From: Escherichia coli
GTDB lineage: Bacteria > Pseudomonadota > Gammaproteobacteria > Enterobacterales > Enterobacteriaceae
Assembly: GCF_013315695.1 (NCBI RefSeq)
Contig: NZ_CP054353.1
Length of the DNA: 64,000 nucleotides
Strand: one strand, 5' to 3'
In this document: positions 6,001 to 9,000 of the stretch, piece by piece
Layout of the letters: every line of letters starts with the position of its first letter
Position numbering within the stretch: position 1 is the stretch's first letter
Position numbers: made by a program

Positions 6001-9000
6001 TAATCATCGCCACGCAGGCATACGCGCCGCGGATTAAGCGGTTTGTGGCAGCAATGGCAGCGAAAATATTGTCGGCTTCCAGCGGGTAGTGGCGGAAGTT
6101 GTCCAGCTCGCTGGCGAAGATATTAAGCAGAATCTCCGAGTCGGAAGTGGTGTTGATGTGGCGGCGTTTTTCTTCAAACAGTTTTTTACGCAACTCGTGA
6201 GCGTTGGTCAGATTGCCGTTGTGGGCAAGCGTAATGCCATACGGAGAGTTAACGTAAAACGGCTGCGCTTCAGAGGCGCTGGAGCTACCAGCCGTAGGGT
6301 AACGCACATGACCAATGCCCATATTGCCCTGCAAACGCTGCATATGGCGAGCTTCAAATACATCGCTCACCAGCCCGTTCGCTTTACGCAAACGGAAGCA
6401 GTTATTGGCATCAATGGTGATGATGCCGGCGGCATCCTGACCGCGATGCTGAAGCACCGTTAAGGCATCATAAATCGACTGGTTAACCGGCATAACACCG
6501 GCGATACCGACAATACCGCACATACGTCTTTTTCCTCGTTAAGCCACATCTCAGAGCACTTACGCTCTGGGCAAGAAACTTGACGAGCTTTGCAGATAAT
6601 CAAAAAACCATCTGATGATAAAACTGAACTGCGGGATCAGCTGTGATTTGCTCCAGTCTTCGCTTTTCGACACCCCGGTAAAGGAGTCGAGAAAGAAGAG
6701 AATGGCAGCAACAATCAACACACCGCGCAACGCACCGAAACAGACGCCCAACACCCTATCGGTGCCTGACAACCCCGTTTTCTCCACCAACTGGCCTATC
6801 ACGAAGTTCACGATAGCACCAACGATCAGGGTAGCGATAAACAGTACCGCGATGGCAATCCCATTTCGAACCAGTTCGTCTTCAAAGCCCGTAAACCAGA
6901 CTGACAGGTAAGTGTAGTAATGACTGGCAACAAAGAAAGCACAACCCCATGTCACCAGCGATAACGCTTCACGAACAAAGCCGCGGATCAGGCTAACCAG
7001 AGAGGAAAAAGCAATCACCGCGATTATGGCGTAATCAATCCAGACCATATGTGTCCCACGATTTTACGCCCTGTCATCCTGTTCGGGGCGCATTCTAACA
7101 GAAAAAGAAAACGTTTGCGTAGGGATTTCCTTCCCACGCATCAATAAAAATGGCGCTGAAAAAATATTCAACGCCATCGACTTTTTATGCCTTTGCGGCA
7201 TCGGGCAATGCGTGTCGGATGCGGCGTGAACGCCTTATCCGACCTACGGTTCTACTCCTGTGTAGGCCTGATAAGACGCGCCAGCGTCGCATCAGGCAAC
7301 GACTGTCGGATGCGGCGTGAACGCCTTATCTGTACCAGATAAGACGCGTTAGTATCGCATCAGGCAAGACCATATTAATTCGGTGTATAACCCATTACCA
7401 CGCCGCTTAAGCCAGAAAGTTGCTTCAACTCACCCAGCGAACCTTTCAGCTTATCTTTCGAGGCATCCGGCCCAACCAGAATACGGGTAATTTTACCCTG
7501 CACTGGCGTGGATGGCGACGTATAAACCCGATAACCGGCACCGCGCAGCTTACCGACAATCTCATTCACTTTATCGGCATTTTTCAGCGCCCCCAGTTGT
7601 ACAACATAGGCTTTACCCGTTGGCGCTGCTTTTTCTTCCACGACCGGCTTCGGTTCTGGCTTCGGCGCAGGTGGTGCTTCAACCTTCGGTTTCGGCGGCT
7701 CCACCGGTTTCGGCTTCGGTGGGGCGACCGGTGCAGGTTCCGGTTCAAACTCGGTGTTATTGGCTGCAATAGTGGCCGGATCGAGCGACGGTGCTGCGGC
7801 ATCACCTGCCCGCACCTCTTCCGCTGCGCCTTCCGGCGGCTGCGTCGGCAACGCCTGAGTGGCGGCTGGCATCATATCAGGCTCATCGCGATCGCCCGCT
7901 TTCGGCACCAGCGGGATAGCCGCGAACTCATCCTGATAATGTTTTTTCTGCCCGTCCAGCAGCCCTGGAAGTACAATCACCCCCAGCGCCACCAGCACGA
8001 TCGTGCCCACTAACCGATTCTGAAACTTACTTGCCACCGCTTCTCCTCGCGTCAATCACTTCCATGACATGTGCGACCGTGTGGAACGAACCACACACCA
8101 GCACGGTATCTTCCGCTTTAGCGTCCGCCATTGCGGCATCCCATGCCTGCGCCACGCTATCAAATGATTTGCCGTTACCCAAATGCTCAAGCAGTTGTTC
8201 TGCCGTGGCACCGCGCGGCCCTTCCAGGGGCGCACAATACCAGTCATCAACCACGCTTTTCAACCAGGCCAGAGTTCCGGCAATATCTTTATCATGTAGC
8301 ATACCGATAACCGCCAGCACGCGCCCGTTTTTCGGTAGCGCTTTCATACGCCCGGTGAAATATTCCGCCGCATGTGGATTATGCGCGACATCAAAAATAA
8401 CGCGTGGCGACTCGCTCACAATCTGGAAACGTCCCGGCAAAATTGCGCTGGCAATCCCGTCGCGAATGGCATTTTCACTGACCTCCAGCCCGCTGGCACG
8501 CAGTGCCGCCAGCGCCGTTGCGGCATTCGGTTGCGGGACAAGCGGCAACGGCAGATTTTCCAGCGTGCCGTGAGCATCGCTAAACGTCCAGTCATGATCG
8601 GTGACGGAATAGTTCCACTCAACGCCCCGACGTTGTAGCAGTGCACCTTTTTCCTGCGCCACATCAGCAATGGTAGAAGGCATTTCCGGCTCACCGACAA
8701 TTGCCGGTTTTTCGCTGCGAAAAATACCTGCTTTCTCGCGACCAATACTTTCGCGATCTGGCCCCAGCCAGTCGGTATGATCCAGCGCAATACTGGTTAC
8801 TACCGCGACATCGGCATCGACAATATTGGTTGCGTCCAGACGACCGCCCAGCCCTACTTCCAGAATCACTACGTCAAGTTGTGCCTGCTTGAACAGCCAC
8901 AACGCCGACAGCGTACCGTACTCGAAATAGGTCAGGGAAATATCACCGCGTGCCGATTCAATCTCCGCAAAAGAAGCGGTGTGGGCCGATTCCGGCAATT

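Follow-up and report, generated by a model that had tools for sequence, protein, structure and literature searches.

The window, a 64,000-nucleotide stretch of the Escherichia coli contig NZ_CP054353.1, contains the spacer between dedD and cvpA, and all genes of this region lie on the minus strand. The gene identities given in the initial annotation were confirmed, as DedD, CvpA, PurF, UbiX and FolC clear the respective NCBIfam equivalog or subfamily cut-offs, and the dedD coordinates match those of the annotated dedD of record NZ_OZ547117.1 (100% identical). On the minus strand, the dedD stop codon is followed by REP units (7365-7214), a terminator hairpin, the PurR box and the cvpA start codon (Table 1). 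The REPs had been described as following the hairpin, which is right in window coordinates but not in the order of transcription, where they precede it because the genes are on the minus strand. The region very likely represents the 3' untranslated tail of dedD and, behind it, the cvpA promoter.

Table 1. Features of the dedD-cvpA region in window coordinates, in the order of transcription.
Feature	Position	Strand	Basis and remarks
dedD CDS, 220 aa	7375..8037	-	TAA stop 7377-7375; NCBIfam NF008641 equivalog, E 8.6e-117
REP unit 1, degenerate Z2-type, GCCTGATGCGATACTAACGCGTCTTATCTGG	7335..7365	-	85% identical to unit 3 (direct repeat); pattern match, 2 mismatches
REP unit 2, Y-type, inverted	7305..7332	-	direct repeat, 90%; inverted repeat
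Head-to-head linker AGTCGTT, 7 nt, S motif of BIME-2	7298..7304	-	sequence reading; definition PMC3333891
REP unit 3, canonical Z2, GCCTGATGCGACGCTGGCGCGTCTTATCAGGC plus CTAC at 7265-7262	7262..7297	-	pattern match, 0 mismatches; part of naRNA4 match
Tail-to-tail linker, long, ACAGGAGTAGAACC, 'l'-type BIME-2	7248..7261	-	sequence reading
REP unit 4, canonical Y, GTCGGATAAGGCGTTCACGCCGCATCCGAC, GTAG ahead at 7247-7244	7214..7247	-	inverted repeat
Ancestral non-REP flank, TTGCCCGATGC plus small hairpin ATGCC-GCAAA-GGCAT	7187..7208	-	REP-less allele, other genera
Rho-independent terminator of the (accD-)folC-dedD transcript	7143..7178	-	terminator scan; stem ATGGCGTTGAA/TTCAGCGCCAT, loop TATTTT, U-tract 7149-7143
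PurR operator of the cvpA-purF-ubiX promoter, ACGCAAACGTTTTCTT	7105..7120	-	identical to ChIP-chip motif (PMC3159470)
Probable -10 hexamer TAGAAT of the cvpA promoter	7092..7097	-	sequence reading; kept in 76/77 species loci
cvpA, ATG at 7048	6560..7048	-	NCBIfam NF008100 equivalog, E 8.9e-102

Anatomy and classification of the REP array

The four REP units in alternating orientation that the initial annotation had described are indeed present, and every element was found where it had been placed. The architecture is Z2'-(TA)-Y'-(AGTCGTT)-Z2-(14 nt)-Y (primes denote foot-truncated units), one pair being canonical with 91 bp and the other shortened to 68 bp. The core pattern of REPs matches three times in the window as compared with 0.07 matches expected by chance, a number that none of 100 shuffled sequences reached, and a repeat search returned direct families of 42 nt (90% identity) and 33 nt (85%) together with inverted arms. 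Units 3 and 4 carry the GTAG/CTAC tetranucleotide that forms part of the published definition (PMC3333891) and are predicted to form hairpins with internal loops (-21.4 kcal/mol, z -4.5, and -18.8 kcal/mol, z -5.6, respectively). The linker between them is also found in every 91-bp unit of other strains. The tetranucleotide is absent from units 1 and 2. Both of these are truncated at the foot, unit 1 lacking CTAC and unit 2 lacking GTAG, and they are joined tail-to-tail via 'TA' alone (7334-7333), such that the feet are replaced by CTGG-TA-CAG and a perfect palindrome, CTTATCTG-GTA-CAGATAAG, results. The array comprises a shortened Z2-Y pair with an 's'-type tail junction next to a canonical Z2-l-Y pair. 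The single hairpin of unit 2 is degenerate (-8.1 kcal/mol).

The first REP unit begins 9 nt past the dedD stop codon, in the window (unit 1) as well as in K-12. This is within the distance of less than 16 nt between stop codon and REP hairpin that is given for REP-mediated translational down-regulation (Liang, Rudd and Deutscher 2015, as summarized in PMC12306157), and because of this short distance the REPs possibly interfere with termination of dedD translation. That the array serves to tune DedD translation is nevertheless quite unlikely, as the stop-proximal unit is degenerate, its predicted hairpin is weak and not significant (-7.3 kcal/mol, z -1.5) and the first stable local hairpin starts only about 30 nt 3' of the stop codon.

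On the promoter-proximal side the array is bordered by a non-REP flank. The small hairpin within it was not significant in the shuffling test (z -0.9). The first 11 nt of the flank (7208-7198) look similar to a Z2 head and account for the direct-repeat homology on either side of the 91-bp units. The possibility that they represent a truncated fifth REP was considered and rejected since the same sequence or a related motif is native flank in other genera and in the REP-less E. coli allele; in strain F1140, which carries this allele, the dedD stop is joined straight to the TTGCCCGATGC flank. Related CCCGAAGAGGC motifs are present at the equivalent spot in Citrobacter, Salmonella and Kosakonia.

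The array is of an ordinary, well-described E. coli repeat kind (REP/BIME-2), that is, a known element at a known locus. Imperfect palindromes of 30-40 nt with an internal stem mismatch, the hallmark of Y and Z2 REPs, are found in canonical form in units 3 and 4 and with 85-90% match in the foot-truncated units 1 and 2. The array is extragenic, lying past the dedD stop and ahead of the cvpA start, and highly repeated: a 551-nt query matched 100,476 places overall, at a median of 17 per E. coli genome. BIME-2 elements are tandem arrays of Z2 and Y with a short S linker, tail linkers of the s, l or r type, no long L linker that binds IHF, and a strain-variable copy number (PMC3333891), and the alternation of Z2 and Y with a short head-to-head linker in the window conforms to this architecture; the 7-nt linker is too short for the L motif of BIME-1. 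With the BIME-2 family in the nomenclature of Gilson, Bachellier and Hofnung (PMC3333891) the array thus shares alternating Z2/Y units, short linker, tandem arrangement, extragenic position and variable copy number among strains, but it differs from it in the stop-proximal pair, which lacks both stem feet and GTAG/CTAC. The REP-associated transposase requires these elements to bind and cleave (PMC3333891), and it probably does not act on this 68-bp pair.

Units 2 and 3 match the Rfam model RF02564 (naRNA4) on the minus strand at 7265-7336 with 65.1 bits, above the gathering score of 59.5 and better than on the opposite strand (45.2 bits); the alignment covers the full model (1-77) with a linker that is 6 nt shorter. 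The model amounts to a generic Y-linker-Z2 pair, and the match should be read as such a REP pair and not as a dedicated sRNA gene. It has a bearing on the idea that the array acts at the level of DNA or nucleoid, either as a gyrase-binding BIME-2 that eases supercoiling between the two active transcription units or as a source of a naRNA4-like RNA acting with HU. BIME-2 repeats are reported as gyrase cleavage sites (work in the reference list of PMC3333891) and naRNA4 has been reported to condense DNA with HU (PMC4550694). On the other hand, a re-examination from 2026 found no measurable effect of REP325/naRNA4 on nucleoid compaction or REP-REP contacts (bioRxiv 10.64898/2026.03.23.713779), K-12 with its one Z2-l-Y pair does not have the head-to-head unit at dedD-cvpA, and the copy number variation described below speaks against a fixed structural role. 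Given also the generic nature of the Rfam model, we regard an action at this level as highly improbable.

Terminator hairpin and cvpA promoter

The hairpin that starts 197 nt beyond the dedD stop has the features of a Rho-independent terminator, a GC-rich stem-loop followed by a U-run, 3' of a stop codon and on the transcribed strand. Its stem comprises 11-12 bp (7177-7150; 5 G-C among the 12 pairs) and encloses a loop of 6 nt (7166-7161). At -18.0 kcal/mol (z -5.0) it is more stable than any of 200 shuffled versions. The earlier description of a terminator-like hairpin with T-runs on both sides is literally true: the tail on the minus strand is UUUUAUU (TTTATTGATG in the register of the terminator scan), and an A-run upstream (7186-7182) lends the element a bidirectional appearance. 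The plus-strand version is weaker (-11.6 kcal/mol), and its T-run is 4 nt away from the stem. The minus-strand hairpin is thus predicted to terminate transcription in vivo.

Of 77 Enterobacteriaceae species loci, representing more than 20 genera, 74 have the same hairpin with its T-run, whether REPs are there or not; two of the other three loci have a different hairpin with a T-run at the same place, and in one it is degenerate. It is kept even where only 28 nt separate it from the dedD stop (Trabulsiella, Yokenella), lies at a fixed distance from the cvpA promoter across species and is invariant among the E. coli alleles compared. Conservation was scored by a direct stem-and-tail scan, as in minimum free energy structures of whole segments the U-run is taken up by pairing with the A-run ahead of the stem. 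The stem is nearly invariant, as is the loop, and compensatory two-sided changes were not seen across the species loci, only one-sided changes from U.G to U-A. Conservation could therefore partly reflect a role at the DNA level upstream of the cvpA promoter.

In the searchable part of the Term-seq tables of PMC7815308, cvpA and folC contain 3' ends, whereas the dedD-cvpA spacer has none between MG1655 positions 2430606 and 2431708, an absence that is uninformative and may be due to thresholds and low expression of dedD. Neither dedD nor cvpA appears in the SMRT-Cappable-seq supplements, and searches of full-text literature for a dedD/cvpA terminator or operon name returned incidental mentions only.

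The proposal of a PurR-controlled promoter upstream of cvpA is well founded. The plus-strand 16-mer at the PurR box, AAGAAAACGTTTGCGT, is identical to the ChIP-defined site of cvpA-purF-ubiX (PMC3159470), and it conforms to the 16-bp operator pattern ACGNAAACGTTTGCNT of PurR-bound promoters. This box is near-identical in all 77 species loci, with a single substitution in one. The probable -10 hexamer TAGAAT, which we take from the purF literature to be part of the cvpA promoter, implies a -35 element that overlaps the PurR box. A scan of 6900-7500 with the sigma-70 consensus called no promoter because the -35 element underneath the PurR box is weak, and the promoter was placed by the published PurR site together with conservation across species.

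Copy number variation of the array

Within E. coli, the dedD-cvpA spacer measures 167, 235, 258, 326, 329, 440 or 529-531 bp, and it reaches 804 bp in another Escherichia species. Across E. coli and other Escherichia, the array has 0 to 7 REP pairs with a 91-bp period. Among 60 genomes sampled at even intervals, 40 had one pair, seven had three, six had four, one had five and two had seven; two had none, one had the 68-bp pair alone and one an array interrupted by IS1397. Two junctions were counted across 5,426 complete genomes. The REP-less junction occurs in 136 of them (~2.5%) and the junction of the window type, recognized by a 46-mer across units 1 and 2, in 133 (~2.5%), once per genome, while at least one REP pair is retained in about 97% of E. 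coli genomes. Even O157:H7 strains differ among themselves, with three or four pairs. K-12 MG1655 shares flanks, terminator and PurR box with the window. It has one pair and a spacer of 258 bp, whereas the window has the additional shortened 68-bp pair beside the dedD stop and a spacer of 326 bp; the K-12 Z2-l-Y pair differs from units 3 and 4 at three positions and the rest of the spacer up to cvpA at one more. The copy of the MG1655 RefSeq annotation used here contains no repeat features, not even at REP325, so that missing REP annotation at dedD-cvpA means nothing.

These patterns suggest two layers of different age, the terminator as the old and the BIME-2 array as the young one. The array is inserted between dedD stop and terminator and is thus very probably transcribed within the dedD mRNA. 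It behaves like a minisatellite, in which 91-bp units are gained or lost between TTGCCYGATGC direct repeats by slippage, by unequal recombination or possibly through the REP-associated transposase.

Separation of the folC-dedD and cvpA-purF-ubiX transcripts

The initial annotation had ascribed a probable insulation of the two transcription units to the block as a whole. This is not well supported, given a hairpin kept in 74 of 77 species loci and a BIME whose copy number runs from 0 to 7 pairs and which about 2.5% of E. coli lack. In fact, the comparison of REP copy number among strains, which had been suggested as a check, shows the BIME to be dispensable and hypervariable. The conserved hairpin next to the variable array identifies the terminator as the conserved insulator. 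To judge from the sequences, it is in all likelihood the terminator and not the REPs that separates dedD from cvpA-purF-ubiX, with the BIME as a polymorphic passenger of the 3' UTR. The terminator would stop folC-dedD transcription about 23 nt ahead of the PurR-overlapped -35 element and would thereby keep this constitutive transcription out of the purine-repressed operon. We are likewise fairly confident that the locus works without the array.

The closest well-studied counterpart is REP325 (naRNA1-6, yjdM-yjdN), which has been characterized as a partial Rho-dependent terminator and stabilizer of the upstream mRNA (bioRxiv 10.64898/2026.03.23.713779). Like the array described here, it consists of tandem Z2/Y units in the same orientation relative to transcription, placed in the 3' UTR of the first of two co-directional genes, and its units align well with the 91-bp unit (local score 59 of 91). 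It differs in having six pairs that recur every 100 bp, a head-to-head linker of 14 nt and a tail linker of another kind. REP325 lies inside an operon without a separate downstream terminator or promoter and is thus itself the attenuator, whereas at dedD-cvpA the array is followed by a conserved intrinsic terminator and an independently regulated promoter.

REP325 is also the main argument for viewing BIME and hairpin as one insulating block, in which REPs pause many polymerases or terminate them with Rho and the hairpin catches the rest. REP325, of the same Z2/Y type and orientation, attenuates downstream transcription in a partly bicyclomycin-sensitive manner, and REP-containing tandem gene pairs have higher ratios of upstream to downstream expression genome-wide (bioRxiv 10.64898/2026.03.23.713779). 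Furthermore, the entire 3' UTR of 246 nt is predicted to fold very stably (-103.7 kcal/mol, z -6.2). By analogy, a contribution of REPs to attenuation at dedD-cvpA is possible. REP325 constructs with only two to four hairpins were, however, insensitive to bicyclomycin, and the window has only two intact ones. Together with the presence of the hairpin in genera without REPs and its invariance next to 0 to 7 pairs, this makes a joint insulating block rather unlikely. DESeq base means in the data table of the same preprint are 1840 for dedD and 1350 for cvpA and say nothing on read-through.

We are similarly doubtful about the array as mainly a stabilizer of mRNA, whose stem-loops would block 3'-to-5' exonucleases once the terminator hairpin has been removed and so protect the folC-dedD message. 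This is the classical function of REPs, shown again for REP325 and yjdM (bioRxiv 10.64898/2026.03.23.713779), and the array does lie inside the transcript, 5' of the terminator and on the strand that scores better with Rfam. If it applied, DedD and FolC would rise with the number of pairs. Yet a protective 3' structure is already provided by the terminator hairpin, and REP-less alleles persist in nature. Returning to the terminator as the element that separates the transcripts, effects of the REPs are most likely modulatory, such as slower 3'-to-5' decay of the dedD end and pausing or partial Rho-dependent attenuation; we infer every such functional effect at this locus.

The significance of the locus beyond annotation is small. 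It offers a clean worked example of a terminator as conserved insulator and, as a second lesson, of REP arrays as minisatellite-like passengers of a 3' UTR. The natural alleles (0, 1, 2, 3, 4, 5 and 7 pairs, truncated or disrupted by IS1397) could serve to test how REP copy number affects neighbouring genes. Some selective benefit of a structured dedD 3' UTR is possible, as about 97% of E. coli retain at least one pair and palindromes have been gained independently in several genera. It would be going much further, and we consider it very unlikely, to assume that the dedD 3' spacer is selected for stable RNA structure, with genera using their own palindromes, and that the pair number in E. coli (0-7), being heritable and quick to mutate, tunes DedD/FolC output or leakage into cvpA-purF; linked to this is the idea that the near-invariant terminator, with its loop, might also serve the cvpA promoter as an upstream element.

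The palindromic repeats in the same spacer of other genera are unrelated to those of E. coli. Within the Enterobacteriaceae, these genus-specific repeats have in common that they are located between dedD stop and terminator, are GC-rich, form hairpins and are sometimes arranged in tandem. Those of Enterobacter, Kosakonia and Phytobacter, for example, belong to unrelated families with nested CCCTCTCCC...GGGAGAGGG palindromes, while Citrobacter and Salmonella have single or paired REP-like units and no Z2/Y array.

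Composition and class of the repeat array

All genes of this neighbourhood lie on the - strand, so that the order of transcription reverses that of the initial annotation: dedD stop codon, REP units, hairpin, promoter, cvpA. The four alternating REP units and the hairpin reported there are borne out by pattern matching, Rfam score and folding, all beyond chance. The REP core pattern matches three times in 64 kb (0.07 expected), and Rfam's naRNA4, a model of a Y-linker-Z2 pair taken from REP325, reaches 65.1 bits on the - strand (gathering score 59.5). By its score this sole non-tRNA Rfam match in the window is genuine, yet it is to be taken as a generic REP pair. 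Folding of unit 3, unit 4 and the terminator hairpin is in each case much more stable than that of shuffled sequences (z -4.5 to -5.6), and so is that of the whole dedD 3' UTR (-103.7 kcal/mol, z -6.2). Units 1 and 2 are weak as single hairpins (-7.3 and -8.1 kcal/mol), and their shortened tails pair with each other in a perfect 8-bp palindrome. GTAG/CTAC, the tetranucleotide that the REP-associated transposase requires in order to bind and cleave (PMC3333891), is missing from this stop-proximal pair, a decayed copy.

Coordinates of genes, spacer elements and further signals in the window
Feature	Position	Strand	Remarks
folC	8027-9295	-	NCBIfam equivalog or subfamily model
dedD	7375-8037	-	NCBIfam equivalog or subfamily model
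dedD stop codon TAA	7377-7375	-	
dedD-cvpA spacer	7049-7374		326 bp
Gap, dedD stop to unit 1	7374-7366	-	9 nt
Unit 1, Z2-like	7365-7335	-	
Tail-to-tail junction TA, units 1/2	7334-7333	-	
Unit 2, Y-like, inverted	7332-7305	-	
Head-to-head linker AGTCGTT, units 2/3	7304-7298	-	7 nt
Unit 3, canonical Z2, with CTAC	7297-7262	-	
Tail-to-tail linker, units 3/4	7261-7248	-	14 nt
GTAG and unit 4, canonical Y	7247-7214	-	
Non-REP flank	7213-7181	-	small non-significant hairpin, A-run
Terminator hairpin	7177-7150	-	followed by UUUUAUU
Conserved stretch upstream of cvpA	7049-7185	-	
GGGAAGGAAATCCC motif	about 7135-7122		
PurR box	7120-7105	-	
Probable -10, TAGAAT	7097-7092	-	
Run-off and RpoN signals	7049-7374	+	
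cvpA	6560-7048	-	NCBIfam equivalog or subfamily model; ATG at 7048
Term-seq 3' end in cvpA	about 6891	-	MG1655 2430606
purF	5006-6523	-	NCBIfam equivalog or subfamily model
ubiX	4342-4911	-	NCBIfam equivalog or subfamily model
Isolated REP-like single units	16698-16723, 20144-20169, 42028-42054		
tRNA gene	45531-45602	+	

By the definitions summarised in PMC3333891 the array is a BIME-2, as it combines alternating Z2 and Y units, a short head-to-head linker, short and long tail linkers and tandem repetition. A BIME-1 is ruled out, the 7-nt head-to-head linker excluding the IHF-binding L motif. Arrays like this are well known, and K-12 also has one at this locus. It is the only multi-unit BIME in the window, which contains three isolated REP-like single units elsewhere.

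Variation within E. coli and across Enterobacteriaceae

A 551-nt query across the feature matches 5,425 of 5,426 complete genomes, with 100% identity to E. coli isolate AF3 (NZ_OZ547117.1). K-12 MG1655 carries one 91-bp Z2-l-Y pair in a 258-bp spacer; this promoter-proximal pair differs from window units 3/4 at only three positions, and the window spacer has 68 bp extra. Spacers measure 167 bp in the REP-less allele, 235 bp in E. coli SC516 (locus L090), which has the 68-bp short pair alone and no canonical pair, 329 bp in E2348/69, 440 bp with three pairs and 529-531 bp with four. The REP-less allele served as query against all genomes, and spans were read in 60 evenly spaced rows: one pair was present in 40 of the 60 sampled genomes, three in seven, four in six, five in one, seven in two and none in two, while the 68-bp pair alone and an IS-interrupted array occurred once each. 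The window's diagnostic junction is found in 133 of 5,426 genomes, one copy each, and the REP-less junction in 136.

O157:H7 strains vary among themselves between three and four pairs, which argues that the array changes fast, and the TTGCCYGATGC direct repeats bracketing the units offer an obvious slippage or recombination route for unit gain or loss. Given the SC516 allele, the window type may be a recombinant of the SC516 type and the common type; alternatively, SC516 may derive from the window type by loss of a 91-bp unit. In E. coli JNE25-003 (locus L091, NZ_AP045053.1) the IS3-family element IS1397 occupies positions 3230-4578 in a Z2-unit loop (junction GACGCTGGC / IS1397 / TGGCGCGTC, apparent TGGC duplication), thereby interrupting the six pairs located between dedD and the dedD terminator. 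IS1397 is known to target REP loops, and this site fits that specificity. Terminator and promoter are constant in every fetched allele, bar a single base in the stretch that separates the two.

A CvpA scan gave 80 species loci, 77 of which have dedD upstream of cvpA, with spacers of 153-804 bp. The promoter-proximal 125-150 nt, PurR box and -10 included, are nearly invariant among these, and 74 share the window's hairpin (GGCGTTGA...TCAGCGCC with its T-run); two of the remaining three have a different hairpin with T-run at the same place, and in one it is degenerate. In contrast, the stretch from dedD stop to hairpin is hypervariable. It measures 28 nt without any repeat in Trabulsiella and Yokenella; Citrobacter and Salmonella have REP-like units here, and Escherichia has Z2/Y arrays of up to seven pairs (804 bp). 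In Enterobacter, Kosakonia, Phytobacter and relatives this 3'-UTR site is occupied by an unrelated family of GC-rich, nested palindromes (CCCCTCACCC...CCCTCTCCC-loop-GGGAGAGGG...GGGTGAGGGG; loci L016, L024, L027, L028, L030, L036, L042, L048, L052, L060, L063, L066 and L074), which forms a tandem array in Enterobacter sp. ENT03. A conserved hairpin next to a hypervariable stretch indicates that the terminator is the ancient, constrained element; the repeats are lineage-specific additions to a permissive site.

Promoter, terminator and proposed insulation

The PurR site in the window is identical to the ChIP-defined site of cvpA-purF-ubiX (PMC3159470), which confirms the PurR-controlled promoter initially annotated and implies that these genes are independently promoted and purine-repressed. 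A review assigns folC expression to an accD-folC-dedD transcript (PMC7264889). In the simplest reading the hairpin would terminate this transcript about 23 nt upstream of the cvpA -35 region. The proposal that hairpin and BIME as one block insulate the two units is supported for the conserved terminator rather than for the BIME: the number of pairs ranged from zero to seven in the 60 genomes, the terminator was constant in the fetched alleles, and the BIME, a BIME-2 array, is polymorphic and dispensable. Conservation thus suggests that the insulating role belongs to the terminator.

About 150 nt upstream of cvpA, terminator loop included, are almost invariant over more than 20 genera (loci L010-L089), and a conserved GGGAAGGAAATCCC motif lies just upstream of the PurR box. 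So much conservation is more than a plain terminator requires; it may indicate an upstream promoter element or a binding site not recognised so far.

Possible REP effects, antisense signals and mapped 3' ends

REP325 is the best current experimental model for these REPs. It acts, depending on context, as a partial Rho-dependent attenuator and stabiliser of upstream mRNA, and its earlier proposed nucleoid role was not reproduced (bioRxiv 10.64898/2026.03.23.713779). A translational effect on dedD is possible because unit 1 lies 9 nt from the stop codon, the limit given in PMC12306157 being <16 nt; the weakness of the unit 1 hairpin, however, counts against such an effect in the window allele.

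The dedD-cvpA intergenic region was described as 'transcribed in opposite direction' in an in vitro run-off microarray (PMC3141248), and RpoN genomic SELEX placed a peak within the spacer (PMC8743547). These signals could be real antisense initiation or REP cross-hybridisation; antisense transcripts, if real, would be stopped by the hairpin's two-sided T-runs. The accessible portion of the Term-seq tables lists no 3' end in the dedD-cvpA spacer; it does contain a reproducible internal 3' end within cvpA and further 3' ends within purF and, shortly before the dedD start, within folC.
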